Assembly (NCBI GenBank): GCA_010405405.1 | Contig: MU004233.1 | Span: 375,067-439,066, forward strand | DNA: 64,000 nt | Direction: 5' to 3' | Source: Microthyrium microscopicum | Lineage: Eukaryota | Shown: positions 4,588 through 63,448 of the stretch, piece by piece | How the letters are laid out: each line of letters begins with the position of its first letter | Numbering within the stretch: position 1 is the first letter of the stretch | Program-made: the position numbers and the translations under genes | Notes under the pieces: model-generated | The model's input: only the letters and a program-made list of their open reading frames with translations | The model's database searches: none | What the model was told of the DNA's origin: nothing

Positions 4588-4733
4588 TTTGGGTTATGTT
4601 TTGGTGGGTTTGAGTTGAGGTTTGGGATTGTTGTTGCGGGTAGTAGTTGTGTAGCGTATTGTTGGATGATATTGTTCTTGTATGTGTTTTGCTAGGAGAA
4701 GTGAATTGATGACTTTGTACTCGTGAATGAGAC

Positions 4734-4741
4734 TGACGTCA
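4734..4741. promoter_or_regulatory. CRE / ATF-type bZIP site (TGACGTCA)
   Basis: Perfect palindrome CTGACGTCAG about 150 bp upstream of the 77-aa ORF start. Confidence 0.4.
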
Positions 4742-4767
4742 GGAAGTAATCTATTCAGCAATCATTT

Positions 4768-5062
4768 TGACAGAAGGTTCGTTCCAAACCCTGGATCCGC
4801 GCTAGTCCTAATCTAGGATTAGGAAGCAGAAATACCAAAATTTAGCCTTTATTAGCTATTATATCTTTTTGTCTTTTCTACCCCTTTCTATATATTACTT
4901 TTACCTCTATTATAGCTTAAATTCTAAGCTTTAAGAAGATACGTTTTACGTCTTTAATAAGATATAAATACTATAGTTATTATAGTAGTTAGTTAATTAG
5001 ATTCTTTAATATTCTCTTTACTAATTCTATATTCTTTAAGCTATATAAACTATATTCTATTA
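4768..5062 (+). repeat. Copia 5' LTR (295 bp)
   Basis: Ungapped alignment to 19347-19641; the differences seen are C/T and G/A transitions. Confidence 0.95.
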
Positions 5063-6029: not shown

Positions 6030-6360
6030 TATTTAGTAAAGATATATAAGTATCTAATTATTTTATATTCTATTTCTAAGCAAAGTAGAAGGAGTATTTA
6101 GTAAAGATATATAAGTATCTAATTATTTTATATTTTATTCTTAAGCAAAGAGATATAATGCTAGGCTTAAACTATCTAAAGAGGAAATCTAGAAAACCTA
6201 GAGAGTATAAATATCTTTTTTTCCTTACTCGTTCTCCTTCTCTTCTTTTTCTTTTTCTATATTAAGGTAGTATTTCTTAAATAAAGGTATAGAGATACTA
6301 AGGTAGTATTTCCTAAAATAAAAGTATAAAGATATTAAGGTAGTATTTCTTAAATAAAGT
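6030..6360. repeat. Short direct repeats in the Copia leader region
   Basis: TATTTAGTAAAGATATATAAGTATCTAATTATTTTATATT twice (~6030, ~6095); TAAGGTAGTATTTC three times (~6263-6350). Confidence 0.7.
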
Positions 6361-8886: not shown

Positions 8887-9109
8887 TATAAGGAGCTAAT
8901 AGGTACAATAGGCGAGTAGAAAGTAGCTAGTATTGTAGGATCTAAGTACGGAGAGAAGAGATCTAGAGATGTAGCTATAGATATAAAGAAGTAGGGGCCT
9001 AGGATATCCTTAGATATACTAACCCTAAATAGGATAAAGAGATCTTATCTATAGGATTAGATCTTAGTATCTAAATATTATAATACTAAACTTATAAGGA
9101 TTCTTTACA
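8887..9109 (-). repeat. Gypsy 3' LTR (223 bp)
   Basis: Aligns with 16382-16604; termini T[G/A]TAAGGA...TC[C/T]TTACA. Confidence 0.93.
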
Positions 9110-15100: not shown

Positions 15101-16381
15101 TTAATCTTAAAGTTTTTAAGTAGACTAGTAACGTAATACTATAGTTTAATTAATTACTAATATAGTATATAGTTATTTAAAGAATTAATCTTCTTCTATA
15201 AACTTAATATATTAGTCTAGATACTTGCTATTAGATATTAATATATAATATTTCTAGAGAGTAGTAAAATTATTAGGATTATCTTAAAGAACTATTAATA
15301 TTTATTTCTCTACCTTTAGTCTAATTTTATATAATGCTTATATAAATAAAAGCTTTATACTAGTAAGTAATATAACTTTACTATTAAGGTCTACTAGTTC
15401 TAGAGGTAAATAAAATAGAAATAATATAAGAACGTTATAAGGTTCTTTTTTACGTACTAGTAATTCTAGCTAATAGTAGATATTAATAGGTAATCTTACT
15501 TCTAATATACTTTTATTTAATAAATTACTAATAATAGTACTAGAGGTTAATACCTCTTTACCTTTTAATCCTAGCTCTTTTATTATACTTACTAGTATAA
15601 TAGGTGCTATAGTTAATAGTCTAATAATAATCTTATAAAGTTATTAAATATTAATACTAACTTAAGTATTTTAATAGAGAAATTCTTTATCTTTATTATC
15701 TAAAGCTACTTTAGGTAATAAAGGTAACTTTTTAATAAATTTAACTACTAAGATGCTTTTTTGCTATAGCGTTAATATAATAGTAGACTATTAATTAGTT
15801 CCTATATCTAGAACGACTAGCTTCTTAGTAAAATAGCTATCTTTACTACAATAGAGTAAAACTAAGTAACTTTAAATACTAATACTGCTATACTTATAAG
15901 TAATATAAAAGTTACTTAAGGATGCTAGTTTAAGACTAGGAATAAGTAATATCTTACTTATAGTAATACGTAGCTAAATAATATAGTATTTCTTAATAAA
16001 TTAAAACTAATTTAATAAATTAATAGATATAGATTTAATAAGGAATAAGGTAAGTATATTTTATAATTAGTAGAGAGGAAGTAGTATAAATGCTTCTATA
16101 GATCTAAGAAGAACACTACGGGATAAAGTTTAGGCCTCTAAGTAGTCTTTATTTTAGTAAATAACGCTAAATTTATATTACTTTAGTTAGTATTTACAAA
16201 TTTGCTAGTACCTTTAGTAATGCTAATCTTAATTAAGAGTAGTATTACTAAATACTAATTAGTTAGATTTATAATATAACTATAATAATTTAATAAAAAT
16301 TATTAAACGCCTCTATACGTTTATTAATAATATATAAAATATACGTAGAGCGTAAAATTTAATATAGAGGTACTTAGATTA

Positions 16382-16604
16382 TATAAGGAGCTAATAGGCA
16401 TAATAAGTAAGTAGAAAGTAGCTAGTATTATAGAATCTAAGTATAGAGAGAAGAGATCTAGAGATATAGCTATAGATGTAAAGAAGTAGGGGCCTAAGAT
16501 ATCCTTAGATATACTAACCCTAAATAGGATAAAGAGATCTTATCTATAGGATTAGATCTTAGCATCTAAATACTATAATACTAAACCTGTAAGGATTCCT
16601 TACA
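16382..16604 (-). repeat. Gypsy 5' LTR (223 bp)
   Basis: Aligns with 8887-9109. Confidence 0.93.
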
Positions 16605-19346
16605 TTTAGATACGTTATAGCTTAAACTTACTTACTTAGCAGTTTATTTGCTTAATAAGATTCTAAAGAAGTAGCTAAACTAGAGAATATTCTTTAAGAT
16701 AGTGTTTAAATGAGTACTAGATCTCTTATTAGTCTAAATTATTAGCTTAAAAGCCTATATTTATGATTCTAATATTCTAAAGCTTAAGAAGCTTTAATCT
16801 TGCTTAATTAAAGGCTAGCTAATAAGTTATACTAGAAGTAATATCTTTAGGGTTTAGATTCCTTTAAATAACTATATTATTAAAGTATAAGATATTATAA
16901 TTAATAAAACTATTAAATTTAATGCTACTATACTTATTATAAGTAATAACTAATTTACTAATATACCTTTAAATATATTGCTCTCTTATCTTAAAATAGA
17001 CGTTAGTAGTAGTATATTTAACCTATAAGAAGCTAAATAATAGCCTAATTAAAATTAGGAAGTATAAAATAATTAATAGTAAGAATAAGATAGCTATTAG
17101 ACTTCTAAAAATAATTCTAATTAACTTATATTTAATAACTAGCTAATAATACCTAATCTTATACTATTACTACTATCTTAGCCTTCTTTATAATATCTAA
17201 TACCTTTTATAAGTTTATTACCTACTTAAGATTATACTAAATTAAGAGAGAATACTTTAGAAGATCTTACTTCTATAATTTTACTAGTACTACTACTAGC
17301 TACCTTAATAGCTTACCTAAAATAGTAGTATATTACTAAATATAAATAAGAGATCTAAGCCTCCTAAAATATTTTTATATACGTTATAAGAAGTAGTTGT
17401 ATTTTATAATCCTTAAAGACTACTAATTTAGTACTTTATAAACCTTACTTCCTCGTCTTATTATATTATATATTCTTTATAGCTTTAGTTTAATACTACT
17501 ATAAAAGAAATATACTAGAATTACTAAAAATATAGTCTAAAATAATAAAACGCCCTAATTAAGACTAGTATCTTTTAGCTACTAGAATTAAAATTAAAAT
17601 ACTTTAGGAATAAGGTATATTTAAAGAGGTCTATACTCCTTAAACTAATAAGCCTATTTTACTTTTAAAGTAGGTATTCTTAGAGAAGTATAATTTAAAT
17701 AGCTTCTTTTTTAAATATAAGGCTAGAATCTATATAAGAAGAGATCTATAGTACTAAAATCTAGAACTAGAGATTTATGCTACTACTAGAGCTTACTATA
17801 TATTATATATAATTTTTATACTAATAGTTATATTTAATCTAGATCTTTACTAATTTAATGCTATAAATACCTTCTTAAATATTATTCTAAATAAAATAGT
17901 TCTAGTTTAATACCTTAAAAGCTTTAATATCTTTAGAAAGGTCTTACTACTTCGCTATGCTTTTTATAGATTATTAAGATCTTTATTATTATAATATTAG
18001 GATATAAGAGTTATTCTTTATATAATAAAGTTTAAGCTTATTTTAGAAGACCTCTACTTCTTTAAATATATTTAATATCCTATTTTTCTTTTTTATTATA
18101 TTAATAACTTTCTTCTTCTCTTACTAAAAGTATATTAAGTAAAAGTAAATAAAATAAAATATAAACTTAGTACGCGCTACGCTATAAGGGATTTAAGTAC
18201 TTTAAAAAGCTTCCTTAATATTTAAATACTTTAAGATTAAGTTAATTAAAAGCTTTAAATCTTATAGGACTAGTATATTAATAAAATTAGTACTAAATTT
18301 TAGCTTAATATTATAAAGAAGACTAAATATGTTATTCCTATTTTAAATCTTATTAAACTTATTCTAAATAAAGAATAAGTATCTAAAGATTAGATCTACG
18401 CCTTCTAAATATATTATAGCTTTATAATCTATCCTATAATAATATATAGGCTAAATATTTATTATATAGCTTCTTATTTAAGCTATTTTAATTAGAATCC
18501 TTCTAAGCTTTACTACTATAAGATTAAGAGAACTATTCTATATCTTTAAGTAATAAAATACCTTATACTTAAGTATTATAGAACTATTAAAGTATTTACT
18601 ACTAGTAAAGAAGTATTTCTTATAGCTTATAATGCTATATTTATAAATAATTAGGAGACTTAAAGATTAACCTAGGGCTTTCTATTTAACTTATTTAGAG
18701 GACCTATTAGCTAGTAATTTTTATGTTAGAAGATAGTCTTAATATCTATAATAGAAATAGAACTTCTATTCCTCTTAAATACTTTAAAAGAGCTAATCTT
18801 AATTTAACGTTTCTTTTTATAGCTTAACTTTAATCCTAATATTAAAATACTAATATTAAATAATAATACTTAAATAGTAGGTATTATAATAAAGTAAGCT
18901 TAGCTTTTATCTTTTAGATTAAAATACGTTAATATATATTAGTTCTAGCTTTATTAAGAAGTTATAAAGAGTTATATCTTTATTAAATAGGTTCTTATAG
19001 GCTAGATACTAGTAAATAGTTTAATAAAAGCTCTCTTTTTATAAGAATATAAGAAGTTTAAGAAGATACTAAATTTAATAAATATAGAGTACTTAGTACT
19101 AGCTTAGAAAGATTCTTTCTAAAATACTATAAATATTCTTACTATTACTATAAATTACTAAATCTTCTATATTTTTATATAAGCTAAATCTCTTATATTA
19201 GGATTACTTAATAGTACTCTTTATTTCTTATTTTAATTAGTTTTAATATTTTAGTAGCTTAGTCTTAGAAAACCTAAAAATTAATATTCCTTTATACTTA
19301 ATACTAAGTATATCTTAAGATTTATAGGTTAGAAACTTAAAGAGTA

Positions 19347-19641
19347 TAATAGAAGATTTATTCTAAACCCTAGATTTGTACTAGTTCTAATTTAGGATTA
19401 GGAAGTAGAAATACTAAAATTTAGCCTTTATTAGCTATTATATCTTTTTATTTTTTCTACTCTTTTCTATATATTACTTTTGCCTTTATTATAACCTAAA
19501 TTCTAGGCTCTAAGAAGATACGTTTTACGTCTTTAATAGGGTATAAATACTATAGTTATTATAGTAGTTAGTTAATTAGATTCTTTAATGTTCCCTTCAC
19601 CGATTCTGCATTCCCTAAGCTGCACGGACCGTATTCCGTCA
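19347..19641 (+). repeat. Copia 3' LTR (295 bp)
   Basis: Aligns with 4768-5062; ends CCGTCA followed by TSD CATTT. Confidence 0.95.
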
Positions 19642-20560
19642 CATTTCTCGCGATAGGGACTGGGGCCCTTGTCGGTGTTCATGAACTGCGTCCAATCATG
19701 CCCTGCCCTGCTGCTTGTCATTGTGAAATTGAACGCGAGTTGCGTTATAGCAAATACTTCCTCCTGTGGACAATCTATTTTGTTCATTCTGCTTATTTAG
19801 GTATTGTTTCGGTCTATAGCAACTCGATCATTCTAGCGTGAGGCATCCTATTACAACTCACACGACCCTGAGCGGTCTCGAATTGACGAACAAGATACAG
19901 TATGTAGCCCGGAAAATTCCTCCCTAGAGATAAATGAAACTTCAAGGAAGTACATTAGGCCACAATAACTACTGGGGGGTTGATTCTCTTGATAAGAAGG
20001 CTCGCATATATCATAGATATAGAAGAGAACTCGAAATCGAACTTGCGAGTCTTTGCGTCTTACAACTAGTAAGATCAGCCAAAAGCCAACATAACACACG
20101 CTAAATTGAGCCATATGTCCAAGGCAATCTATGCTTTGACCAGCAACGAAATTTATCAATCGATGATTCAAGCCATGGATTTCTACTGGTCAGTATCATC
20201 CAACTTGGCCCATACCATTTGTCGATTGAGCTCGTAGGTTTTGGCTCAACATGACAAAGCAGATTCATGAGGCTGAAGGACTGCGACGAAACTCGAACTA
20301 TGCATCTAGTTCAATCACACCAATAGCCAGTCGTATATCCAAAGAGCTTCTTGGCCGGCTTATCTAAATTTCATAACATTTCTGCTATAAAAGCTCAGGT
20401 GTGGATCTCAAAGCTGCTACTTTCAGTCTCTCATTTCTCTCTCTCCAGGTTTGGCACCTCCTATCACTACCAGCACAGATTCTAGACAATGTTAAGCAGC
20501 GACTGTCCAGTATTTGATCCAAAATACCTGAATTCTAAGGACGAATGTGCATCATGTGAC

Positions 20561-21319
20561 CCTTAGCGGCACACCATATGAACGTTAACCGTTGATGGGC
20601 GGTTGAGCCAAAATAAATGGCTGGTAGCCAGTTTATTAGTAAAAGACAGCTAGAATTAGCTAACTATTGTATCTTATGAATCGTTAGATAATGTAAACTG
20701 TTAAACGTGTTTAAACCATTCTAAATAGCTAAAGGTTTATTATATTATAAAGGTTGGTAATGATAAACGGTTTAGTAGTGGTTAAGGAAAGGTTTATTTT
20801 GGTAGGAAGTTTTATTAGTAGAAACTCTTGCTAAGAGCTAAGCACTATATGATCCAATAATGTGCACTTTATTTTTAGTTTCTTAATATATCCTTGTAGA
20901 TTTGCCTAGATTTTATGTACATTAGCGTAATAGTCTAGCTACTTTAAGCCTAGTAACGCCTCTTTGAAATGCCTTTCCGTTTCGTAGCCTGCCACCTGTT
21001 CAATTCCCGTAAGAAGCACAAACCACAATTAGATAAATAAATAGTATTTCATCAAAGCAAGTCCAGGATCAATTGAATCTGGCTTGACTTTTTTTTTGGC
21101 TTAAGGATTTTTGCTAATTAAGCAGGTTGATCAACGGTTTATTTTGGCCAACGGTTTACTCTCACTAACCATTAAACACGTTTTAACTACTTAATAATAT
21201 TAATCGTTGAGCAAAACCAACGGAACAAAAAACGCCTATCCAGCTCAAACGGTTTATTTATGCAAATAGTACATCCACGGTTTATTCACGGTTTATCTGC
21301 CCGGGGTATACCGCTAAGG
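20561..21319. mobile_element. Non-autonomous TIR DNA transposon remnant (~760 bp)
   Basis: TIR CCTTAGCGGCACACC vs CCTTAGCGGTATACC (reverse complement of right end); candidate TSD AC, or GACC if the TIR is one base shorter; repeated subterminal [A/C]ACGGTTT motifs; AT-rich interior with no ORF. Confidence 0.7.
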
Positions 21320-23487: not shown

Positions 23488-24467
23488 ATTGAGGATGCAA
23501 AAAGGATATTAACTTTTGAGATGGTACTATTAGTACGCGAGGTATTTACTTAGTTCAATGAAAGCTTGGAACCGTAGAGTGTAAATATATAGGCTCGGGA
23601 ATACTGAATTAACTGAGTCTTAGACTGCATGTAACAAGTTTGAAGCGTCGTCCGCCATCGTCATACAAATGCGTTAGTGTCATCATGACTTATTACTACA
23701 AGAAGCTCGAAGCCTGTTATGAGGAAAGGAAGCACCATGGGTAATGTTGTGATGATACAATGACTCTGCGGATCTCCTGCGCCTTTCGTGTTAAAAGGGA
23801 CATATACTCAGCCAATGAGAGTAAGAAGTCGCCATTGTACTCCATTTAGTTATATTTAGACATGGCATTCATAGATTTGCGATATTCCGACGGAATTCAC
23901 GAGTTTGCGTGTTCACATAATGAACAAATTAGTAGATCTTGAGATCTTGATGCTGCACTCTAGGAAGCTGACAGGAGTAGTAGAGTATGTCTTCATGCAC
24001 CTGTCGTTCTCTACAACTACATAACCATATGTGCCATACTAACATATAGATTGATTTAGCTTCAGTAATATCCATTGGGACAATTGGTTAGATCGTATAA
24101 GACACATTCGATTACCGTATCCCTGCGAAGATTGAAACTGGCTGAACTGAGGCCTAGTAGTGAGGCTTAATGTGGGTCTGGGTAGTGGCAAAAATGGGTA
24201 AAGTTTGGCGGTAGTTTCAATGAGGCTCAACCTCAGCAGTAACTGGATGCTTAAACTGGACTCAAGTACAAAATGCAGCTGTCTACATCATTGGAGAACC
24301 AAATTGCTGAAGCTGTTGCTGCAGCTTCCCGAGCGTGCGTTTTCGCCGGCCTCTACGCACAAACTTAATCCCACATCAACCACCCAACTACATAATCACC
24401 TTTGCTACAGCAGCCACAAGGAGGTCGACTATCATGGGCAGTGCTGACTGATTGTGTGAAAAGTATC

Positions 24468-26538
24468 ATGTTGAAGCTATTGCGCAGAACCAAAAAGCCA
24501 TCACCTCTTCAATTATCCATCCCTGAACCACAATGTTCGTTATGCGGGGACCTTTTGAGATTCGACGAGCGTACTGGCCCCATCGTATCATCGATCTTCG
24601 GCTGGGATACGGATGCAGTAGAAGCCGCAAGGATGAGCAAATGTGAGATTTGTAAATTCTGTTGCGCAGCATTGGATAGCATAGTCAGCGCTGAAGATAT
24701 AACGGAGCTCCAGGACATGGTTGTTCGTGCTACCGTGAATACATCTAAAAGCAGAGTAGCCGACACAAAGGTATTCCGAAAGCACGAAACCAAACTGCGT
24801 ATACAAATAGAATCTGGGAGATTGACGAGGAGGCGAACGGAATGGACGATATATTTACAAAAACGCAGTCTGGCACTGCCGTTCGTACGCTTACCTGATA
24901 AGCTTACGAGCAGGTGTTTTGGTAACACAGGCTCGCCGGCTGCGGCATCTTGGGCAAAAATGGAAATTGACAAGTGCTATGCAAAGCATTCCATCTGTGC
25001 AGGCCGAAAAGGAAATCAACCATCGAAGCCGAAACAAAAGCGTCTGCTTCCGAAGCGTGTTATCCAGCTTCTCGAAAACGGTAAACTTCGCCTCAACGAG
25101 ACCGCTCCGAACGAGCGAGATGTCTACGCCTGTCTGAGTCATTGCTGGGGTGGTAAGCAGGCTCTGACCACAACACTTGCTACGCTTCCTGAGCATTTGA
25201 AGAACGTGGATGTTGATAGCCTACCGCGCACGTTCAAAGACGCGATTACCTTCTTGCGATACCTTAACATCAAGTACATATGGATCGACTCGCTATGCAT
25301 AGTTCAGGACTCGAGGGAAGACTGGTTCCAGGAAAGTGGTAATATGGCCGGAATATATGCCAATAGCTTTCTCACACTGGCTGCAACAAGAGCTTCCAAC
25401 GGAGAGGTGGGACTCTTCTCCGATACGGTTTCTGTCGAGTTGAACTGTGGCAAATCCGAGTTGCTGCTATGTCGACTTCCAAATCATCCAATACCAGGGA
25501 GTGTTACCAATGAAGACTTCCCGTTGCTAAGTAGAGGCTGGGTAGCACAAGAGATACTTCTGTCGCCACGAATACTTCACTTTTGCAACGGGGACCTGAT
25601 TCTCGAATGTGTGGAAGATATCGTCTGCTCATGTGGAGAGTCGATCAAGAATCTTAATGGCATGAAGGATAAAATGTGGGCCACAAGCGAGGAGATTCCA
25701 GCTCACAGTACTCGCACCATCCGAGCACTACTGTATCAGTCCAGTAAGCATGCAGCAATAAAGTCAAAGGCTTCTGTAATTACGACAGCAGAGCCCAGTT
25801 ATTTCAGAGCATGGCGCGAATTTGCATCGCGCTACTCCAAGCTCAGTCTAACGTTCCAGTCTGACCGCTTGCCTGCCATGGCCGGCTTAGTGCACCGGTT
25901 CGCTGCAGGGTATGGCAAGACGGACGCCAAAGCACTGGGAACGACATATGCCGCGGGAGTCTGGGAAGAGAACTTGCACAATGATCTGCTGTGGTTCATG
26001 CCAAATATAGTGAAGCCGCAGGCAAGGGCAGAGGGGACGACCGCACCAAGCTGGAGTTGGGTATCTTGTGGAAGCGTTGTCGCCTGGCTTACTCCCACTG
26101 CTGGAGCGGAGCTTTGGTTTCAAGTCGTAGATGTAAGTAAAGTGCGAAGCTGTCAGCGAACATGATCCTTTTGGGATGGTAGAAGAGGCGATGCTGAAAT
26201 TGCGGGCACCATTGTTGAAGATGACGTTACGGAAGAACAATCATCTCCATCACATCTATGATGTGCAAGTCAATGGAGAGTGGGGCCTATGTTGTTACCC
26301 AGACTTTGACTTGGATGAACTGATTGCTGAGGATGGATCAAAATTTGTAGGTTTGCCGATTGTGCACAGATCAGGAGTATTATCAGGCTTGCTTCTGTGG
26401 ACGAGAGATGATGGAATATTCGAGCGCGTCGGATTGTGGTCCTGTGATAAGCAGAGATACATAGGGACAGGTTGGAGAGTAGAGCGGCTCAGTGAGTGCG
26501 TGGAAAGGTTAAAGCATGAAGAGATCGTGATAGCGTAA
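24468..26538 (+). pseudogene. HET-domain (heterokaryon incompatibility) protein, frameshifted at ~26133-26140
   Basis: HET motifs YACLSHCWGG, YIWIDSLCIVQD, MAGIYANS, LLSRGWVAQE, DRLPAMAG, APSWSW; the C-terminal part (DPFG...FERVG) continues in another frame after a GTAA duplication. Confidence 0.85.
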
Positions 26539-36409: not shown

Positions 36410-37356
36410 ATTGGCTTAGGCCTGCGCACGGACGTGTTTTTCAGAAGCTAACCAATTGGGAACTAGCTCACTACTGTATCACAATGTATGTCTTGGCGCG
36501 TTTTGATTGGCTCGTGCTACCAGTTCAGCCTTGTCGCAGCGTTTTCCAAAGAAGATATAAGGCACATTGGATAATGAAGGCCAATCAGTCCTTGCTTTGA
36601 AAGAGACCTTGTCTCGCTCCATGGAGCGATAGGCAATCGATAATCAACATGAATCCCGTGCCTTCAACAGCCTCGCAAGCTGCTGTTTGCTACGTCCTGC
36701 TATTGGCTGCTTTATGTTCCATCACATGCGATGAAGACTTGCGTGAACGATCAAACTGATCTGTGATATATAGAGCTTTTATTCTGCGATTGAAGAGCTG
36801 CGCAAGAGCAAAGGTAGACCCTTGAGCCAAACCTTGGAAGATGCTTTGGTGGGCGAGAACTGCGTTAATCGTCCGGCTTAGCTTTTGAACTCTGGCGCTC
36901 AAATGCTAAACTGCTGATAGTATCTGGCTGAAATTGACAGAGGTTTAGACGTGAACTGCTAGCTGGACACTGCAACGCGACGTGGTTTGGCTGGGGGAGT
37001 CTAGAGTCGAGACGCTTTGGGGCAACAGAAGAGGGGGTGGCGATGGCTGGGCTGGGTTGCAGCCCCCTTCTCCCACCTCCCAAGGTCCACGACTCCATCA
37101 CGGCAATTGAATTACACCCCCTCCAAAGCTCCAACGTGCTTCGTGACATCCTTTATGTACGCATGTATACTTTCGCGCCTTGCGTGAAGTAGCCTTGCAA
37201 AAGTGCTGCATCTTCAAAGACATCGGCTTTTGATATAAGCCATCCACGGCTGAATCTCACGATATCCTCCACCAGCAGAACAACGCCACGATACTGGTCG
37301 TTGACATAGAGCTCACGTATTCGTCTAACATTGCAAAAACTTCTATCACGGCTATT

Positions 37357-39640: not shown

Positions 39641-41447
39641 TCATTGAATGTTTAGTCGATACTCCAAAGCTAGCCGCTCCTTACACATATCACCGATCAA
39701 ATATGCCACCGCCATAGGATGACAACTTGGCAAAAATGGCGTAACACTCATATCCGCAACCCGCAGTGCCTCAATACCCTTGACCCTGAAGTGAGTATCG
39801 ACAACTGCCATCGGATCATCGTCTGTTCCCATCCTCGCCGTGCAACTCGGATGCCAATCTGTCACAGCCACTTGACGACCATAAGCCAGGATGTCTTCTT
39901 CGCTTGAGCTCTTCGGCGCTGCGAGTGCTGCTTCGATATCATCTTGTAGACTTGGATCACTGAATATTTCTTGCACAATTCTGGCTGATTCAATCAGGTT
40001 GCGTTGATCAAAAGGATGATCGAGAATTCTAGGATCACAAAGCGGCGGATCATATGGGTTGGTAGACGCAAGTCGAATGCTGCCTCGTGACTGTGGTACA
40101 TGTCCAATAATTAGTGCTGTCAGGTAATGGAGCTTGGGAATGGCATCTGGAATAAGAGGCGGTGTATGAGTGGTGATTTCCCAAGTTGGGACTGTGGACT
40201 GCTTCAACCGCTCCTTCACATCTGCTTGAAGCGATTTATACTCCTCGCTATTTACCATCGCGGCTGATGGCCGTAGAAAGCCCATTGGCATACATCCATG
40301 AAGCGAAGCGAGAGGGCCAGTACCATTAGTATTGAACCGAGCTTGAGCCTCAGCATAAGCTCTCGGGTCAGTGATGAAAAGACGTGGGTTTGGTATCGAA
40401 GATTTGAGTTGTATGACGAAAGGAACGAGCCAGTGGTCTTCGAGATTGCTGCCTACTCCTGGAAGGTCTTTCACGATTGGGATACTATGTTTGTCGAGTT
40501 CCGCTTTAGGTCCTATGCCGGAAAGCATCAAGAGTTTTGGCGTATCGATGGCTCCAGCGCATAATATGACTTCTTTTCGAGCGAGATCTATACTAGTAAG
40601 GAACCGTTCGAACGTGATTTTTGCAACTCACATTTTTTGTCGTCGGCCTCCACTCCTATTGCTCGTAAGCCTACCAATATGAGTCCTGTTACTTGAGTAT
40701 CTGACAATATTGTCAAATTGCTGGGGTGATTGTGAAGGAAGACCGTAGCACCCGTCGCTCTGTATCCAGTCTTTCCAGCGGTTGGACACATTCCCAAGCC
40801 TATGGGATCACCAGAGTTGATGTCTAAATTAGTTGATATGCCACAGTTCGCAGCAGCAGCAAACATGCTCGTGAGCCCAGGTTCCCAGGTTTTTGGGAAG
40901 TAAACATACACCCCATCTGCATTTCCATGCTGGTGCAAACCCGGATTCGCAAACTGCTGATACTCAGGGGCCACGTTGGTGTCATAATTTTCAATTCCTT
41001 GGAATCGCCTTCTCGTATTCTCCCAATTGAAGAAATCGTCATCCACGATCTTTGCCCAGTGATCATAGTCTCCTTTGGGACCAATTGTGTAGCAAGCAAA
41101 GTTGATTTTGCTCGACCCCCCGAGACCTTTGCCGCGAGAACAGTCGAGAATGCGATTGTCCAAGGCCTTTTGCGGAACAGTTCTGTAGTTCCAATTGTAT
41201 TCAGGATATTTCGTCAAGATATCATATCGGTCTGCGACAATCAGTGATGCGGGATCACACTCACTTGTCCCCGCCTCAAGAAGTAGCACTGATGGTTTCT
41301 TTGGTGTGTCTGCCAGTCGCCTGGCGAGGATACATCCTGCTGGACCGCCTGATAGAGGTATTACTCATCAATTCTTAGTATATGAGAGATGAACATACTT
41401 CCCACCACAATAAAATCATACTTTGTGATATCCGTCTCTGGAGTCAT
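39641..41447 (-). CDS. GMC (glucose-methanol-choline) oxidoreductase, 3 exons
   Basis: YDFIVVG|SGPAG FAD-binding motif across intron 1; RGKGLGGSSKIN; LSGIGP; PGVGSNLEDH; WHPSCTARMG; LRVADMS. Confidence 0.92.
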
Positions 41448-52722: not shown

Positions 52723-52812
52723 TCGAAATTTCCGACAGATCTGGAGATGCTAAACTTTCGACCATCATCGAAATTTCCGACAGATCTGGAGATGCTGAAC
52801 TTTCGACCATTA
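52723..52812. repeat. 45-bp tandem duplication
   Basis: TCGAAATTTCCGACAGATCTGGAGATGCT[A/G]AACTTTCGACCAT[C/T]A twice, just downstream of the 52831 stop. Confidence 0.9.
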
Positions 52813-52830
52813 TATTGGTATCCAACACCC

Positions 52831-55800
52831 TTAAAAATCTCCACTAAGGAGATGTTCTACTGCGCGCTGTACTTTGCCACCACTTTTGCGCAAGGCCTTG
52901 ACATTATGCTCCGATTCATAGAAGCCCATGTCGTTGAGTTGTCGCAGCTGGTCAACGTATGGTTCCTCTGAAGCTTGTCTACTGTGATATGGCAGGTTTG
53001 TGATGCCTCTACCTCTTGATTCCTCCGGGGCTGAAGCGAAATCTTCATCAGCAATTTCGACTGGGTAGCGACCTTCTTGTGTCTCACTGAACCAGGGAGA
53101 TGTAATCCGTCCCTGGCTATCAATGAACGGGTTGGTAGGTCTAACTTCATCGTCACCCTGCCTTTCACCAGTCCGGCTAGCAATTTGTTTCTGGTACTCC
53201 GAATCATCTAGGAGGGCTGGAGGGATAAGAGGCTCATGTTGTATTCTGAGAGACTCCAAATCACTTGCCCACCCCTTACTATCGTGGGTCGCCCGTGATT
53301 TATTCTTCGCTGTCTTTGATTGTTCTGGTAAGGATTCAAACTCTTCATCTTCTTCACCGTCATCGTTGATGGGCCGTCTGTAACGCTTGTGTGTGGAGGA
53401 AGGAAACTTCCCACTGGAAGGTGATGTTCTCGAATCTGTTCCTCGACGTTGTAGCCCCCTGATCCTCGCTCGTTCTATTCTGTTTACCGCCTGGAGGGCA
53501 ACATCATCCTCAAGCTCTTTTGTAGACGACCAATTAGCAATAGCATCATGTGTCATAGCCTCATCGGGTAAAATGGTAAAGTTGCCGCTTTTTACGGATG
53601 ATCCGCTCGGTTCGCTCAGCAACCATTCCAAGAATATAGTTTTTAGTCGGTTGCCATGTTCATCGACAAGGCTTATATCGTTGCGTTTCAGAATACTATC
53701 TGACACATAACGCTGCGGCTTTTCCCATGATAGACCAGAGACCAAATCGAATTCGTGGGTGTCAGGTAAATTAATTACGACATCAAATGATTTCGCCTGT
53801 AGGGAATTAGATCATGTCGTGTTATATGTGATGTAGGATGGATACTTACATTTCTGTCACCGATCATCTGGGGCTCTTTTTCACTTTCGCTGGAGTCGTT
53901 TTCAACATAAATGTTGCTTGACCCGATCGCACAGTCGTACTCCATGTCGGAAGCATCAATAATAACAAAACGAGTCCTTCGTAGTTTAGCTTTTGTACCT
54001 GACCTTTTTATCCACTCTAAAGCGATGGTCTCTCGTATCTCTGTGTCAGCAGTTAGGTTCTGGTCTTCCATAACTCTTCTCGAAATGCAACTGTTAACAT
54101 TTCTACATTTCCTAGCTGTCAGGGCACAGTACTGGCGTGTCGTGGGATTGAGAACAAGAATATCAAAAGGCTTTTCCTGAGGGGAGCATTAATTAGAGTC
54201 CACTGGAAAAGACTTTGCGAAAATTGATGTGACTTACTTCGGGCTTGAAGGTTGGTACGTATAAGCCCGCACCTAAAAAGGCATGATCTTCTTCTCCGCT
54301 CTCACTCGAATTGCTTTCTGCGCTTTTCCAGCCCGGGTCGGTTTCTCGTGGGATGGGTGCTGGGAAAAGCGGTGATGGCGGTACGGAGGGATTGGACGGT
54401 GTACCTTCAGATTTTTCTGATTCGAAAGATAATTGTGCTGATGCGGTCGTGTTATCTGATTGCGACGGAAAGCGTCTAGGGCTGTCAATAAACGTTTTGC
54501 TACTGTCAATACCAAATCGGCCTAAATCGCTGGCATGAGATTGGTGTTAGACAGTCCCATCGGACTTGATGGGAGCCATCGAATGCTATGGGAGCCAGCA
54601 AATGCTTCCCATTTCGGTATTTTATGTTGGAATATGATGGAGGTGCATACGAATAGATTAACTTACCCATCGCTAGACTCATCTGCAAAGTAATCGTTCT
54701 CTGCAAAATAGTCTCTACCTGACAAATTGGCGGCATCGCGATTCTCGTCGTAAATGGCTGGCGGATTCAACTCCCACGTTGGTGATAGATGGATGGCTGG
54801 TGTTTTCAAGTCCCAGGAGAATGATGGAGGTATAGTTGTCTCACTCTCGCCTTCTGGACCAACACATTCCAAGGTGTCGACCCACTCGAGGACTCTGTCA
54901 TTGTCGTTGATAGCGATATTGTATGTTCCAATCGGTTTATCAAGCCGTAGTATGACAGGCTTAGGCCATGGCAGCGAACGAAGGGAGAAATCGTGGATAT
55001 GTTTGAAAACGTGCTCGAGTAGCTCTGGTGAATCTGGAGGGCCGGAGGAATCACAAAGGGGGCACTTTGTCAAGCCCATAGTTTGGACCGCGAATTGTGA
55101 TAAAATCGTTGCCAGATCGAGGGCTTCTCCTTCGGAATGAATCTCTTGAAGGTGATTCATCAAAGCTGAGGGCTCTTGAAAAATTGGGGGATCGTCATGA
55201 CAGTATAAACACTGCCATCGTGGAGGATGATCGTTCATAAAATGCTCATTCCACTCTTTCTGGGTGACGAAAAGCTTGAAAGGCGTTGGGCAGTCATCTA
55301 AAATACAGGTATAAGGACACAGATCGTTAGCAATGTGTCTCCTGGGTTATGTTAGAAAAATCTGAAAAGATTTGTGTCAATGTAAAGTATATGGAGAAAT
55401 GTTTCTTACCTCCACTGAGTAGAGTTGTTGGCTTCCTCAAAAGGTATGGCCTGGCAACAGCACGGGCATTTAAACATTTTTTGATCAGCTTTCGCTGTCT
55501 TTGGATTGGGATACTGAGCTGATCCTGTAATTGCTGTTATACGAGTCTGGGGCGATTTAATGTGCTGTCGAAGACCTTGAAAAGCGGTCTCAGGAACAGA
55601 AGCTGATACTCCTGACGCCGTAAATGCCGCACTTTTGGCCAAAACGGAAGGCTTGCTGTTGGTTTTTATTTGCGTTTCCCGACGAGTGACTGAACCTGAA
55701 GTTGTGCCCCTTGACTGAGTGCTCTTCGAGGCCCCAGGATGTTTAATACCGGTTGGAATTGGTGCCACAGGCAGATTTAACGATCTATCTCTCAATTGAT

Positions 55801-56623
55801 ATGAATGACGTTGGGCCTGTGTATGGTCAGCATAAGTCTGAGCCATCAGGGCAACTTACCTCCAAGAACCGGTGACGCCGTCTCAAATTCGCTTCAACTA
55901 AGCGTTTGCCAGGACTACAGGCTGTCAATGAGAGATTCATGATGAGATTGTCCGCACCCGTGATAATGAAAGGAATATATGGGCGGATAACATACCCTTC
56001 TAACTCAACGTCGGCAAAGTGATTCGGATCATAGGTTTCTCTGACGTTCCGGTCTGGCTTTGATATGATGAGGCAGTTGAGATGTGCTCTCAATTCTCTA
56101 TGTTGATTCGGGTTAAACGAGTTATCGGCCTTCTGCAAACGGCTCTTCTTCCCACTCTGTCGAATTGCAACTCCAATCGAAGCAAGGTTTTTCATCATTG
56201 AATCTACATTCTCCATTGATTCTGTGGAGCCATCGAATTCTGTCAGGAATTCCTGAAGAAGTTGCAGTAAGCCTCTGACAAGATTGGTATCATTCGGTCG
56301 CTGTTGGAACCTCTGGTCTAGTGATGCCTAGAAGTGTTCGTTAGTCAGGGCGTTCATTTTGGAGGCTTTGGCATTAATAATATCAATATGTGTTGAGCTC
56401 TTGCAAAACTCTACATGATATTCATGAGCCATGCAGGTTTTGATATAGACTTTACCTTATCACGGGCAACAGCGCCGACACTGTCAGCCCATAACTTCAA
56501 ATCTGCCAATCGATTTTGGAGGTGTGTCTTTTGAGCAGTGTCGAGGGCATCATTTATACACTGACCAAACTGGGCTATACAAGATCTCGTCAGATCTGAC
56601 GTCGATTTTTTTGAGTTATCCAT
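52831..56623 (-). CDS. Multi-exon protein: N-terminal helical domain, C2H2 zinc-finger cluster, two pseudo-retropepsin-like repeats, C-terminal UBA domain
   Basis: About 8 exons joined in frame via GT-AG introns (e.g. 56455-56328, 55409-55342, 54666-54530, 54237-54177, 53848-53797); RLADLKLW...ASLD; CPCC...RH...DLCPYTC; CLYC...HLQEIH; CPLC...HVFKH...SLPW; UBA QLRQLNDMGFYESEHNVKALRKSGGKVQRAVEHLL. Confidence 0.8.
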
Positions 56624-57309
56624 TGTGTTGATAGTCGTGTGAATATTTCTCTAGAACCTTTCAAATCCTGGACATTAAACTACCGCTGTAGCCTGATTGT
56701 CTGATCAGTTGAGTCTCGTTCACAAGTATCGGAGTTTGTGAGCACACGATATTCTCCTACCTAATGCGCTCACTGCAAGTCAGCGCGCTACCAATATTGA
56801 GTGCAATACCGGTATAGCTTCATATCGAAGATTCCGACGTAAGAAAACAGTCTAGTTGCACAGTGCGGAGCAAAAGAGCTGCTCCAATGGCATGCGGTCA
56901 TAACATAAGCGATAATGTATGATGCGCCTGTGGAGGTATGAATGTCGATAGAAAGTGAAGTCACTGTTTAAAGCAGGTCGAGTTAACTCCCAGTGAATTC
57001 AGCATCGAATATCTAACTGTGAGGACCAATCCGTGCCCGCATTTCGTTTTTACTAATAGAGGAACAGGATCCTGGTGCGGGGCTCTAGAGTCGTCCTATA
57101 CATGTATGTGGACATGCATCTGCAGACTGCATGATATAACCAATTAGGATCAAGAAATGCCTACTAGCGAACTGTTATGATACGGTAATTAGGCGGAGTG
57201 TACCCGCCTCCTCAGCTTTGGTATCAATGTTGGACTCAAACTCGAAAGCAACCTTCCCCATTTTTCAGCTACCTCGCTAGGTTTTCATGTCTTGACAAGA
57301 CTTCTGGAT

Positions 57310-60300
57310 ATGGCCTCGGCTCTGAGAGCCCCAGTGAGCTCAACATTCCTTTCATCGGTAGCACTTGAGGCTTGGAAACTGGTCTTACAATGCGCGATCA
57401 ACGTAAAATCTCAGCCGGGTGCAACAATAGCGACTAAGCTCAACATTATACTGGGGCACCTCGAAACGCAGCCAATCTACCTTTTACATCAGGATGTTGA
57501 CAGGTTATCCAATGAAGTCCTGAGAGACTTATACAGGATGAGCACGTTAAGCAAAGTTGGAGGAACATTTGACGGAAACATCGAACCAAAGGACATTCAT
57601 GACCGTTTGCTCAAGCTATATCAAAATAAGAAGCTGCAGATGCAAGTTCAGCTTTCAGTCGAGAAGTTTCTCAGTAATAGCTCGAAATCCGATATCGATC
57701 CATATCTGAGGCACCTCGACGATCTCTTGGGAAAGTTGGTTACCAAAGAGTCAAGTCGTGATCAAAACATCCCACACTACGAACACATGCAAGTTGAAGA
57801 TCAACAGGAGCATCCAAAACTGGTCAAAGAACAACTTGCTAGCATTATACGCAAGCACGCAGCTTGCATTGAAGATGACGGTACTTGGCACCCGACCAGG
57901 CTGTTTTTAGAGACTGGCTCTAAGACAAAAGCGAACTATTCGGACTTTGATTTAGTTGTCGCGGCGGCTGATATGAAGTAAGTTTCTCCGTTACCCATTG
58001 CGAAAGTGCTACTGTTTTGGCAAGTACCTGACAATGCCCAAGTACCATGTGCCTCCCATCTAATCTTATATCTACCATGTAGTGCGATGGGGGATTATTG
58101 CTAGATGCATATGTCATATCTCACGCGCACTTTCACTTCGTATACTCACATATTTCAGGTTTTGGCAGGAATTTTCTCTCAGAATTCCTATGGAAGATGA
58201 TGAAAACCTCTCTAGCTCTAGTGAGGAGGATGAATATCGCATCGAGTTAGACGAAGGCGATATCTGTGATATCATAACTGAGCAAACATTTGCAAGAATT
58301 TGCTTGCAATTCGATAGGGAGGATCGTTCGTTGTACAAACTTCAAAGCTTCCAGACACTTTCACATTCGATGTCTACGGGCTACGGCTGGTCGCTCTCTG
58401 ATGTATTGCAAAAATGTGATTTATCTGTTGCAGACAAGATCACATTAGCACATACTGTTTCACACGCATGCTGGCAGTTTTACGATTCGGCTTTAATGGA
58501 TGCAAAATGGACTAGCGAGGATATCTGGTAAGGCTTCCTACACCTGCGTTAGGTCGCTGGCGAACCTATCCAATGCCAAGAAGAGTCGATGAAGATTTGG
58601 CATCGGAAGAGGCTTCTCTCTTTTTCAGCACACTTGACTCCTGACTTGACTATTACTCCGATGATATACTAACTCATTACAGGTTTATGCCCGGAGACCT
58701 CATAAATCAGCACAGTGATCGCATCCAACTAAAGCCATTTATATCATTTCCATTCGGACCTTGTAATGATTTTCCAGCAGAGTTCCCTCAGGCAGATCCG
58801 GTCACACATCGATATTCAAGGATTCTTCTTCTAGGGATTGTCCTCCTGGAGATAGGCCTGGGTCAGCGAGTTGAGATCAAATCATCCCCATCCTGGAGCC
58901 TTCACGCACAGCTTAATTTCACTCATAATATTGCCAAAGCGGCTTTGAATCAATTTAAAACGACAACATGGGACGACTTCTCCTTCAAAAGCACATATGA
59001 AGAAGCCATTGAAAACTGCTTAAACTCAATGAATTTTAAAGACGTACAGAAAAGAACACGAAAGGTGCATGGGAGAAAGTCGCAAATAGCACCACATGCC
59101 ATAGGGAAAGGACCAGAGGAAAAGGTACGAGTAGATAAGACTGATTCAAACAAACGCTCATCTTCACCAATGTCCCAAAGAAGAGATGCGCTTTATCGCA
59201 AGGTGGTGGCTCCTCTGTCTTGGTTGGCCAATGTGGGATTTGAGAGTTCGAATAAAGCTTCCTTTGCAATGATTCGAAAAGCTTCAAGGTCTCAAGAAAA
59301 CATTATTGACAATGGCGCTTTCTTGGGAATGTGGAGCCAAATACGGGCCGCAAAGTTTCATTCAGGTCAGCCAGTTCGTGCCGAAGATTGGATGCAAAGT
59401 CTCAAAATCATCGCTGGTCATATATTTCAGTGTAGGCGAGCTGTAAGCACTGCCTTGAAACCAATTCGCATCGCAGTCTTGGATACGGGGCGAAATCCCA
59501 CTGTTCTATTCTTCAAGAGCCCACAAAGAGCACGCTGGATCAAGGATTGGAAAGACTTTGATGGCGGCTCAACTTCCGCAGTAGACGAGTTTGGTCATGG
59601 AACTTTTATGATCAGACTCATCATGGAAGTGGCTCCCATGACAGAGATCTATGTAGCACGCGTGGCTCAAACAACTGATGGACTCGAACAGAACGAATCA
59701 CAAGTTGCAGAGGTTAGTATTTTCGTAACAATTGCGACTTTTGACAGATGTTGACCAACATTTCACAGGCAATTGAGTGGGCAGGCCTGGAGCATCAAGT
59801 TGACGTGATCTCGATGTCATTTGGTTTTCCAAAAGCTAGTAAAAGAATCTCCGAAGCGATTGCTAAAGTAAATTTAGAACGAAATGGCTCGGTAGTCTTT
59901 CTTGCCAGTGCTGGGAACTCGTCTAGCTACCAGGGTATACCATTTCCTGCTCGACACCCATCAGCCATCCCAATCTTTGCTACGAACTGTAGGGGAACAT
60001 TTCTCGAATCTAATTCCACTCAGTACGATAAGATAGAGGCACTCGGTACCTACGGGGATGATATTCCGAAATCGCTCTTAGATGAGCTTCGACAGCATTG
60101 TTCAGATGCAATTCTACAACCAGGAACATCAGTCGCCACGGCGATTGCGGCAGGAACTGTGGCAATGATGCTATCTTATACTGCCGCTCTATCTTCCCTG
60201 ACGGGATTTACGGGGGGTCCGGAGGTTTTTGGAATCAAACTCAGAGTTGGGATGAGAAAGGTGCTTCGCCGAATGTCACAGCAAACCGGTTCTCGTCGTT

Positions 60301-60619
60301 ATTTCATCAATCCGGTAAGTTTCCCCAGTGTTAGATTCAAAGTTCTTGACGACATCCGATGGAAACAAAACACCACGTCTCCCATCGCACTCGATGGCTA
60401 CCATACGATGCGTTCCTGACCGAGTACTATATCTCCCACCGCATGCGATGGAAGCTTTAAAGTTTCTCATTCGAAGGCCACTTGAGCTTTTCAAGCGTGT
60501 CAGTTGTGCTGGAACATTATACTAATACATTTCAGGTCAGATTTTGGGCGGACAAACCAAACGACAACGAAATGTTTGTAGAGATGTGTGCAGCTATATC
60601 GGATGTCAGTCTGGAGTAG
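57310..60619 (+). CDS. Intracellular subtilisin-like S8 serine protease with large N-terminal region (HET-Q2-type architecture), 5 exons
   Basis: Introns 57978-58158, 58528-58682, 59713-59768, 60315-60535 join in frame; catalytic motifs IAVLDTG, DEFGHGT, ASAGN, GTSVATA; no signal peptide; central degenerate kinase-like segment (WTSEDIWF...LGIVLLEIGLG...YEEAIENCL). Confidence 0.9.
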
Positions 60620-60689
60620 AGAAGCTCTGGTTTTCTGTAGATATCTGATTAAAAGTTTGGAAGGATGAAATCGAAGCTACAGGCCTTTC

Positions 60690-60900
60690 AACGGCATAGC
60701 AAAATAAAAGGCGTACTCCCATCAACTCTGATGGCGCCCAGAGGCTACGGTTTGTTATCGAGTGCTTTATTTGCCATAAAGGGCGTTCAGATTGGGAGTA
60801 TTTATCAGATACGATGGGAATTAAAGCGCCTTTTAATTAGCAGCGCTGGTGGTAGCCATCAGAATTGATGGGAGTACGCCATTTATTTTGCCATGCCGTT
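60690..60900. mobile_element. 211-bp MITE-like element with 51-bp TIRs and 7-bp TSD GCCTTTC
   Basis: Arms 60690-60740 and 60850-60900 are reverse complements with 5 mismatches; GCCTTTC at 60683-60689 and 60901-60907. Confidence 0.88.
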
Positions 60901-62333
60901 GCCTTTCTCGGAATCAAAAGAAATACAGATGTCGTCTCCAATTGTTGATTCTGTGAACTCAATCTCCTCCTCTATATCATCCTTGAGTTCCTGTTTATCA
61001 GCTTCAACCATGATTGGAGGCTCTTCACTGCCAGAGCCTTCGCCGGTCATAAAAGCGGATTTGTGCGAGAATAATTCGCCCTGTGGCCCAGCTCGCTTGG
61101 GTCTGACCACGTGTAATCTATAGGCAAACACAACCCCGGCAGCAGTGTTATATGAGTCTGTCACGGTTTTTGCTCGATGATGTGCGACAGACGCTCCTAC
61201 TTCGACAGGGGCGATCCCACCTGCGGCAGGACCAGACCTGAAAGTCGTTAGTAATACTAACATGTTTCGGCAAGACCGTTTGGTCCTTCAAGAAGTAGGA
61301 AACCATAAACAACTTAGATCAATCGCATGCATTGGGAGCCATAGCACTCGATCAGGTACGCAATCTATGGGAGCCATATGGGAGCCATCAGATATGCTGG
61401 CCACCAATCTTGGTAGGTTTCGAATGTCATCAAGCATCAAGATTTGACACGGGGCGATCTTACCCTGATAGCTCAGTGTTGAAGTTGCTTCCGACCTCCG
61501 TCTTCACTTCAAACGACTGCTGAGCAATGCGAAGTCCAGACACGACGTACAGTGGTCGCTTCCCGAACATTCCAGAGTCAATTTGGCCACGAACGGCAGG
61601 CAGATTGGAGATGGCTAGTAGTGCCTCAGCGGAAAACGGCTGTGCGAACATCTTGATTTGGTGGTCTGCGGTGCCGTAGGTAAGTGCTGCGTGGCTTCCG
61701 ACGTTGGTTTTGATCGAAGTGGAAGCGACCTCCTGGGGTTCGTCAGTACAAAATGTCAATTATGTGTGAAGATTTCTGGCCATTTTATGACCAAGAGTAG
61801 GCTGAGCGAAGACGCCAGTCGCTCCAATCGCGTTACATGGCTCCCATCGTACTCGATGGGCCTCTTAGAGAACTTCTCGACATGCATATCAAGGGGTTGA
61901 CAAAATAAATGGCGGGTTCCCAGCGAGTGCGATGGCTCCCATACAAGACGATCGATTATCAAGTGCTTTATTTACCACCGACCGCGTTCAGACTTGGGCA
62001 ATTTATCGAAAGCGATGGGAAATATAACACCTTTTAATTAGCAGCGTTCGTGGGAGCCATCGACGCTGATGGGAGAACGCCAGTTATTTGAGAGAAACGT
62101 ACCAGAAATTTAGCCCAGATACTAAATTCATTTGACTGTGAGCGAGAATTGGAATGTGTATGATTCTTCTCCGTTACGGTATCAACCTTGGGGAGCACAA
62201 TCTCCGGATGGCTGGACCCGTCAATTGATGCAAGTACGAGTGTCGGCCTTGACGGGTGAGATAGTACTGTTCCAAGCTGCAGCGGGCCATCGGAACTAAA
62301 ACTGAAGTCTGGAGGTAGAAACCAAGTCGGCAT
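60883..62333 (-). CDS. Fungal gasdermin (HET-Q1/RCD-1-like pore-forming cell-death protein), 3 exons, 284 aa
   Basis: Exons 62333-62103, 61732-61464, 61237-60883 (855 nt, in frame); family-typical segments TWFLPPDF...GPLQLGTVL.HP..P, PLYVVSGLRIA, VVFAYRL; SAFM followed by an acidic C-tail; adjacent to an S8 protease. Confidence 0.85.
61891..62101. mobile_element. Older, diverged copy of the 60690-60900 MITE inside gasdermin intron 1
   Basis: Collinear shared blocks: CAAAATAAA.GGCG, TTATC[A/G]AGTGCTTTATTT, GCGTTCAGA, ATTTATC, CGATGGGAA, CCTTTTAATTAGCAGCG, AGCCATC-N6-GATGGGAG.ACGCC. Confidence 0.82.
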
Positions 62334-63448
62334 GATTATGCTTGCTGGAAAATGTAGATCAATTCAAAGAGCAAGCTGTAAGGTAAAAATCAGAGAGCAA
62401 TATTAGTACGTGCTAGCGTTGGGCATGAGGTTACGCGGAAATGGCGCATTATTCTGCAGACGATATCGCTGGGCTGTAGCTGCATGCAAGCAAGCTATCA
62501 AGATTAAAACTACCTGTTACTAGTAGCTCGAATTGAAGTTCAATTTTCTATTCCATAAAGCCCATAACTTTTGGGGAACAGTACCTTCTTTCCGACGTAC
62601 TCACTATCTGAATTTATCTAACCTCGTTGTATCAGTCGAATTCGAATACGAATTTGAAGAGAGAGATTTTGAGTGATATATAATCCCGTCTTTTACAGAG
62701 CGTGATGGGTATTTGTCCAGGTCGTGTCTGAACTTGAGTGAGACGAATAGACGTTACAAGATACTAGTAGATTCAAGTTATTGTAGAGCATCGTCACCTC
62801 GCAACTAATAATCGATCGCACTCTTTACCTTGTCTTACTATTCCAAACGCGCGCTATGGCAACACTGGAGCGAACTTCGCTTCCCGATGCTCAACGGCAT
62901 ATTTTTCGAAGGACATCCTATCTGCGCGCCAAGTTCAATTTGTAAATCGAAACAACGATGCAGCGAAGTGGTGAAGAACTTTTAACGACGTGCAGATGGC
63001 TGTGCCTCCTGTTGGAAGATTTCTTCTCGTGTATCTCGTGGTAACGAGTTTAGGAGATCAAGATCAAGCTGCGAAGATCACGGCTGTTCTGGAGAAGAAG
63101 ATGCTGCTTACCATAGCGTGGAGGGGGGAGTTATAGAAATCATCATATGATGATTTGGTACACAAATCTACAATTTCTTCCCCTTTGCCGATTAAAGTTA
63201 TGCAGACATTGTTGTTACGATGATGAAAGCATAATTGAGAAGAATAAAAACGATCATAACATGCTAAAGTTATTCGTTCTTGCCTAAGATTCCCCTATGA
63301 TCATTTGCAAAACTCCCCCTCGCGCGCTATTTATGGTAGGCAGCTGGACCGAACATGCTGGCCCAAGTCTATTTCGCAGATGCAGCCACAGCTGGTGCGA
63401 CTTCAGCATCAGGTTCTGAAGATCCAGTAGCATGTTCGGTCCAGCTGC

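Follow-up and report, generated by a model that had tools for sequence, protein, structure and literature searches.

CCATC-N6-GATGG palindromes in a cell-death gene cluster of Microthyrium microscopicum are probably modules of a foldback transposable element

Introduction

Why do the long introns of three neighboring genes with different products carry the same short palindrome? This question is raised by a 64-kb stretch of DNA from the fungus Microthyrium microscopicum (assembly GCA_010405405.1, contig MU004233.1, positions 375,067–439,066; hereafter the window), in which genes for a C2H2-type protein, an S8 protease, and a gasdermin-like protein cluster at 52831–62333 (the islet) and the palindrome CCATC-N6-GATGG recurs in known or putative introns of all three. 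The three-exon model of the gasdermin-like gene agrees exactly with a public protein of M. microscopicum, BT63DRAFT_423112 (284 aa); we take this fungus to be a Dothideomycete. An initial annotation of the window proposed that the palindrome is either a site for a dimeric protein or a set of RNA hairpins that coordinate splicing. The analysis reported here indicates that CCATC-N6-GATGG is probably the repeated subterminal module of a non-autonomous foldback miniature inverted-repeat transposable element (MITE) of about 213 bp, and that the units are most likely ordinary mobile-DNA debris rather than a splicing switch. Two copies in the islet are nearly whole, and at least five more are truncated or have internal deletions. 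Copies were seen only in introns, in untranslated regions (UTRs), or between genes, and the insertions would account for the length of the carrier introns.

Palindrome units in the window

The exact palindrome occurs seven times in the window against 0.06 expected, a count reached by none of 100 shuffled sequences. With one mismatch or fewer allowed, 15 units were found against 1.19 expected, and again 0 of 100 shuffles reached this number. Six exact units lie in non-coding DNA between 54.5 and 62.1 kb (54557, 60382, 60719, 60856, 61844, and 62057), and the seventh starts at 40255. The one-mismatch units are located at 54576, 58075, 60436, 61385, 61920, 36719, 53357, and 55215. The units are also chained: the junction GATGG-(GAG/CTC)-CCAT was matched six times against 0.01 expected, with five of the matches at four islet loci, and Tandem Repeats Finder reported a 19-bp period at 54569–54606 and an 11-bp period at 61366–61388. 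The palindrome described in the initial annotation is thus real and enriched, its units lie where they were placed, and the chaining through GAG or CTC with a 19-bp period is confirmed.

The annotation had further stated that no unit was seen in the long coding exons. This is correct for the six exact units of the islet, but three other units do lie in coding sequence. The exact unit at 40255–40270 is inside a coding open reading frame (ORF) of a GMC oxidoreductase, and the one-mismatch units at 55215 and 53357 are in coding exons of the C2H2 gene. All three lack the CTC/GAG context, and because this context is missing, the unit at 40255 is regarded as probably a chance occurrence, unrelated to the others. 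The 6-nt spacer is not free either. Read by eye, it leans to GCAYTC in 15 islet units, as expected for diverged copies of one sequence.

Structure of the element

The best-preserved element, MITE copy 1, occupies 60689–60901 (213 bp, unstranded). Its inverted ends are 52 nt long and 90% complementary, its termini read CAACGG and CAAGGG, and CCTTT directly flanks it on both sides, a 5-bp duplication seen on this one copy. It carries units at 60719 and 60856 and a weaker inner unit at 60802. Folded as single-stranded DNA, copy 1 forms one long hairpin (-59.7 kcal/mol; z = -11.2). The element is short and contains no transposase-type ORF; the frames of at least 40 aa across it run from stop to stop and start outside, and one of them is the tail of the gasdermin gene. 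MITE copy 2 (61890–62089, unstranded) lies 1.2 kb away in gasdermin intron 1, with units at 61920, 61939, 62003, and 62057, and is 73% identical to copy 1 over 210 nt; in the nhmmer profile search described below it scored E = 1.7e-72. Its outer right end, next to the 5′ splice site at 62102, is missing, and its arms are 39 nt long and 74% complementary. Each MITE end consists of two tandem 19-bp modules, each made of a 3-nt linker (CTC or GAG) and the 16-nt palindrome, with weaker units inside the element. Repeat-induced point mutation (RIP) does not account for the differences between the two copies, which comprise 30 transitions and 38 transversions. No prior description of this element was found in searches of the literature on introners (from 2016) and MITEs (titles and abstracts) in Dothideomycetes and on M. 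microscopicum introns.

The reading frame of the gasdermin-like gene ends inside copy 1, whose right arm (60883–60901) holds the last five codons and the stop codon. In an alignment of gasdermin homologues (n = 10), most end at or near ...CISF, whereas the M. microscopicum protein extends to ...DSEKGNGMAK. The protein ends in ...CISFDSEKGNGMAK, of which NGMAK and the stop codon are MITE sequence. The insertion of copy 1 has replaced the end of the gasdermin reading frame, and the CCTTT repeat (60684–60688 and the other flank) marks the insertion site.

Relics and their decay

A profile built from copies 1 and 2 was searched over the window with nhmmer, and the remaining arrays were compared with it. 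In S8 intron 4, an internally deleted piece at 60378–60452 (plus strand, sense to the gene; units 60382, 60401, and 60436) matched the profile at 60378–60449 on the plus strand with E = 2.8e-5 and on the minus strand with E = 4.7e-4. A decayed piece in gasdermin intron 2 (61319–61405, minus strand, sense to the gene; units 61385 and 61320) matched profile positions 41–107 with E = 1.7e-3 and includes the 11-bp slippage repeat at 61366–61388. Gasdermin intron 1 holds, besides copy 2, a two-unit module at 61821–61863 (plus strand, antisense to the gene; units 61825 and 61844), which is an inverted match to 54553–54595. The latter interval belongs to an array in the C2H2 gene at 54553–54625 (minus strand; E = 0.035), in which three chained 19-bp units (54557, 54576, and 54595) are followed by an AAAATA..AATGG stretch resembling a MITE end; it is located in a putative intron (54530–54666) or a 3′ UTR. 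The two-unit module of S8 intron 1 (58053–58093, plus strand) comprises a decayed unit at 58056 and a one-mismatch unit at 58075, and its link to the MITE rests on this unit pattern, since nhmmer gave only E = 22. Outside the islet, a decayed MITE-like copy was found at 36639–36781 (plus strand; unit 36719; E = 8.3e-4), intergenic and upstream of a DNA polymerase phi gene. A possible abutting pair of MITE ends was also observed near 20590–20640, at the edge of an AT-rich block, as a weak match (E = 3).

The window tally is therefore two whole copies, about five partial ones in the islet, one decayed copy at 36.6 kb, and one doubtful case at 20.6 kb. Because the MITE profile matches the intronic arrays and the copy at 36639–36781, the palindromes are, judged by sequence, pieces of a MITE family and not free-standing sites. 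By our own count, there are nine insertion events, seven of them in the islet, whose share of the non-coding, non-RIP DNA of the window is about 14% (binomial p = 3.7e-5, with a rough coding mask and the AT-rich block excluded), so that local clustering is real within the 64-kb window. The decayed copy at 36639–36781 corrects the initial annotation in that a relative of the MITE also exists outside the islet.

The arms and spacers of the palindrome behave differently in whole and decayed copies. A comparison of copies 1 and 2 shows agreement at 19 of 20 arm positions and 3 of 12 spacer positions, with the whole elements 73% identical; the corresponding Fisher test (p = 7e-5) overstates the case because the motif was chosen after the data had been seen. 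The claim that the arms are conserved and the spacer varies accordingly applies to the two whole copies, but elsewhere the spacer leans to one sequence and the arms of the relics decay. Across 21 aligned units, decayed ones included, 69.0% of cells are paired compared with 70.3% after shuffling, and the observed value was equaled or exceeded in 418 of 500 shuffles. Two-sided changes were found in one of six pairs, in three cells, two of which belong to the two arms of one MITE. In the intronic relics, arm changes are one-sided and break pairs with no compensation. In the pair formed by S8 intron 4 and gasdermin intron 2, one unit keeps the spacer GCATGC in both introns while the arms differ. 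Given the lack of covariation among the 21 units, the relics are considered to be decaying. The pattern would fit arms that mattered while the element was mobile and that drifted once a copy was stranded in an intron.

The carrier introns are long, as the initial annotation had reported. They measure 137, 181, 221, 226, and 370 nt, and the seven other introns of the same three genes measure 43, 53, 56, 61, 68, 128, and 155 nt (one-sided Mann–Whitney p = 0.0025). The putative C2H2 intron minus its 74-nt array is 63 nt long, a usual size here. A different palindrome was observed in S8 intron 2 (155 nt, no CCATC unit), where CCAATGCCAA ... TTGGCATCGG at 58570–58606 is complementary at 9 of 10 positions and pairs in the predicted fold.

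Weighing of the explanations

Several observations weigh against the MITE interpretation. The flanking duplication is present on one copy only, and its length of 5 bp fits no superfamily that we could name. No transposase gene was recognized in the window, with a Pfam scan covering 18 of the long frames (at least 110 aa) in 1–52.8 kb. Three of the five intronic arrays score weakly in nhmmer (E = 0.035, 1.2, and 22), and four carrier introns still measure about 127–146 nt after removal of the recognizable MITE parts. Two further regularities, both noticed post hoc, concern position and orientation: four of five arrays have a first CTC-oriented unit that starts 64–76 nt from the 5′ splice site, and four of five are in sense orientation. 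Finally, the likeness of S8 intron 4 (221 nt) to gasdermin intron 2 (226 nt) extends past the MITE-like core as far as both splice sites, which would not be expected from simple insertion into two old introns unrelated to each other.

This last point leads to an alternative in the manner of introner-like elements, namely that the element generated some of the carrier introns or that these were duplicated as whole introns; the palindromes would then belong to an intron-generating mobile element. This alternative overlaps with the MITE interpretation and is, in our estimate, unlikely. Introner-like elements of Dothideomycetes were reportedly described by van der Burgt in 2012, and the presumed class of the host speaks for such an origin here. 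The two sister introns share a 59-nt core of 80% identity (E = 6e-12), each in sense orientation to its gene, and form the best of 66 intron pairs. With GTAAGT removed, their 5′ flanks score 12 against 6.5 ± 1.2 in shuffles (p = 0.003; p ≤ 0.003 against 3000 real windows), and their 3′ flanks are alike with p = 0.03–0.07. The homology ends at the exons of the two genes, which are adjacent, convergent, and unrelated. The greater length of the carriers (p = 0.0025) also agrees with this alternative; published introner-like elements are reported to be multi-copy, to exceed regular introns in length, to have stable predicted structure, and to be prone to decay (Collemare 2013, PMC3609843). Against it, the pair is single: profiles of the 5′ and 3′ flanks gave no third member in the window, and a search for outer inverted ends around the sister introns was negative (p = 0.63 and 0.095). 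An introner call requires introns alike up to both boundaries, with at least four needed (PMC12130899, section 12), and the systematic screen lists 0 introner families for M. microscopicum GCA_010405405.1 (PMC12130899, supplementary file 7), but old decayed members could escape this screen because it needs at least four well-kept introns. Moreover, copy 1 is not an intron and shows by eye no GTAAGT-type donor, only two of the five carriers fold better than shuffles, and selection against disturbance of splice signals could alone give similar insertion offsets. A more specific version, to which we assign a slightly lower chance still, is that the element is an old MITE-derived introner family missed by the published screen through decay, and that it gave rise to S8 intron 4 and gasdermin intron 2 as sisters. 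If so, the long introns of the cell-death cluster would be recent gains and not old introns with passengers, and if an introner-like origin holds at all, a transposon form (copy 1) and an intron form would stand side by side in a class known for introner-like elements. How these elements move is still unsettled.

Two host-function explanations raised by the initial annotation are far less probable. A dimeric regulator, for example the neighboring C2H2 protein, might bind the palindromes as host cis-regulatory sites and co-regulate the three genes. The clustering of the units in one conserved three-gene cell-death cluster would suit this proposal, as would the contrast of arms and spacers between the two whole copies, which is that of a protein target with two half-sites. 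We nevertheless consider it improbable. Neither promoter region (56624–57309 and 62334–62840) contains a unit scoring 9 or higher, and each of the listed islet units falls within an intron or a MITE copy or at a 3′ end. The intronic units lose their arms with no compensation, a related copy exists outside the cluster (36639–36781), and none of the analyses made indicated DNA binding for the C2H2 family. What survives of the dimeric-protein proposal is a transposase-type site, which, on the evidence of two units per MITE end and of arms kept between copies, would fit; a host regulator is unsupported by the promoters, the uncompensated decay, and the outside relative.

A marginally smaller chance, the lowest of all, is given to RNA hairpins that slow or gate splicing, for instance through intron retention, so that stress alone would lead to joint production of the pore-former and its protease. 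Gasdermin introns 1 and 2 do fold better than shuffles (z = -3.69 and -2.75), and a stop codon stands at the start of the putative C2H2 intron, which means that a short protein would result from retention and a long one, with a UBA domain, from splicing. The other three of the five carriers do no better than shuffles (C2H2 intron, z = -1.22; S8 intron 4, -0.88; S8 intron 1, +0.24), with non-carrier introns ranging from -1.15 to +1.29, and the strong fold of gasdermin intron 1 is that of the whole MITE that it contains. The fold of copy 1 pairs arm with arm and contains no unit hairpins. Together with the lack of covariation in the 21 units and the origin of the intronic units as MITE pieces, these results leave the proposed hairpins unsupported as a means of coordinating splicing. 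No Rfam family reached its gathering score in the window; the only Rfam match with E ≤ 1 in 54–62.5 kb, a small nucleolar RNA match in an S8 exon, was rejected as chance level.

The foldback MITE therefore remains the preferred explanation, and a sequence of events can be proposed for it. The half-sites would be binding sites of a transposase, two per element end. The cluster may have arisen as the element re-inserted locally, in a cell-death locus that tolerates transposons and evolves fast, and the short derivatives could have formed by internal deletion and replication slippage. The palindromes would then have no role for the host genes. If this explanation is correct, the finding amounts to routine repeat annotation that accounts for odd intron lengths and for the altered C-terminus of the gasdermin-like protein, and it serves as a warning against taking transposon modules for regulatory code. 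What is new would be a MITE family, of a known kind, in an unstudied fungus; this family also has a modest chance of being an old generator of introns.

Genes of the cluster

The S8 protease gene (57310–60619, plus strand) has introns at 57978–58158, 58528–58682, 59713–59768, and 60315–60535, and its product matched Peptidase_S8 (E = 1.9e-12) and DUF7580 in Pfam. All four introns were confirmed by homologues, since the exon translations are collinear with no missing residues in 6 of 6 homologues tested, and intron 4 was confirmed by the last exon, which restores the conserved C-terminus FINP-x-FW. The gene looks intact, and inspection of its translation by eye shows D, H, and S motifs of a catalytic triad. 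The M. microscopicum S8 protein itself was absent among 94 matches to S8 exon 4.

The gasdermin-like gene (60883–62333, minus strand) is convergent to the S8 gene, at a distance of 263 bp, and has introns at 62102–61733 (370 nt) and 61463–61238 (226 nt). Its identity rests on fold comparison because sequence searches failed: Pfam gave no match to the exons or the whole protein, and a PDB sequence search with exons 1 and 2 returned chance matches only. With the AlphaFold model (mean predicted local distance difference test score, pLDDT, of 65.9) as query, the best 10 Foldseek matches in the PDB were all gasdermin pores, led by Neurospora RCD-1 (8jyz; E = 3e-8; template modeling (TM) scores of 0.48/0.56). 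A perfect inverted repeat of 20 nt (63340–63359 and 63429–63448) was observed roughly 1 kb upstream of the gasdermin start, and a perfect 20-nt palindrome lies near 63137–63156.

The C2H2-type gene (52831–56623, minus strand) was modeled with six introns and 1100 aa, ending in a UBA domain. The public annotation differs: protein BT63DRAFT_201986 (546 aa) stops at 54664–54666, at a TAA that overlaps the putative 5′ splice site of the 137-nt intron, and our model splices past this stop, adding 527 residues that include the UBA domain. Since the public protein ends at the TAA over the donor, the array at 54553–54625 may lie in 3′ UTR and not in an intron. Exons 5–7 of our model had no match in the tails of 57 homologues, so that the splicing of the 137-nt intron is to be regarded as putative. 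A 45-bp tandem repeat of two copies with 97% matches was noted at 52723–52810, immediately downstream of the point where the C2H2/UBA reading frame stops.

S8/gasdermin pairs seem to have a conserved third partner in the C2H2-type gene. In nine other fungi, a C2H2 homologue has a locus tag adjacent to or near that of an S8 or gasdermin gene; examples are Scytalidium lignicola g5277/g5278/g5279, Cladophialophora immunda PV07_09763/09762, and Phialocephala subalpina PAC_11567/11568. The tails of the C2H2 homologues are varied (WD40, TPR, ankyrin, kinase, or phospholipase). A C2H2-type gene with such sensor-like tails, adjoining S8/gasdermin pairs in many fungi, may interest researchers of fungal cell death more than the motif. 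In other fungi, S8 and gasdermin genes are likewise paired, as judged by locus tags that follow each other. It is known that gasdermin genes of fungi adjoin S8 or caspase-like protease genes (PMC8851545), and neither "zinc" nor "C2H2" was matched in the main text of that source.

Other features of the window

A HET-domain gene (E = 8.9e-26) is located at 24396–26165, so that the region has more than one allorecognition-type gene. A 15-kb block at 4700–19700 has about 20% G + C and no frame of 110 aa or more, and it is bounded by 286-nt direct repeats (4772 and 19351) that are 86% identical; it looks like the RIP-degraded remains of a long terminal repeat (LTR)-type transposon.

Comparison with known systems

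The locus resembles clusters of the het-Q1/het-Q2 type (Clave 2022, PMC8851545) in that a gene for a gasdermin-fold protein adjoins an S8 protease gene, and it differs from them by the C2H2-type gene as a third neighbor in M. microscopicum. The likeness concerns the genomic setting and not the motif.

Introner-like elements described in Dothideomycetes (Collemare 2013, PMC3609843; Collemare 2015, PMC4457414) and introners of the transposon type (PMC12130899) are long introns, some of them structured, that decay in sequence and length, and the present locus recalls them in one pair of unrelated genes whose introns are alike from donor to acceptor in sense orientation. The difference is that a single pair is found here compared with the hundreds of copies that are typical, and that a non-intronic copy with inverted ends exists.

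The element itself is comparable to foldback MITEs. The element of M. microscopicum is 213 bp long and has no ORF, long inverted ends, and, on one copy, what may be a short flanking duplication. Its motifs lie near both ends, deleted and truncated derivatives accompany it, and its copies occupy introns, UTRs, and intergenic DNA. It departs from foldback MITEs in that its ends, CAACGG and CAAGGG, and its 5-bp duplication, seen once, match no family testable here, and in that its repeated motif is itself a 5 + 5 palindrome set in 19-bp tandem modules.

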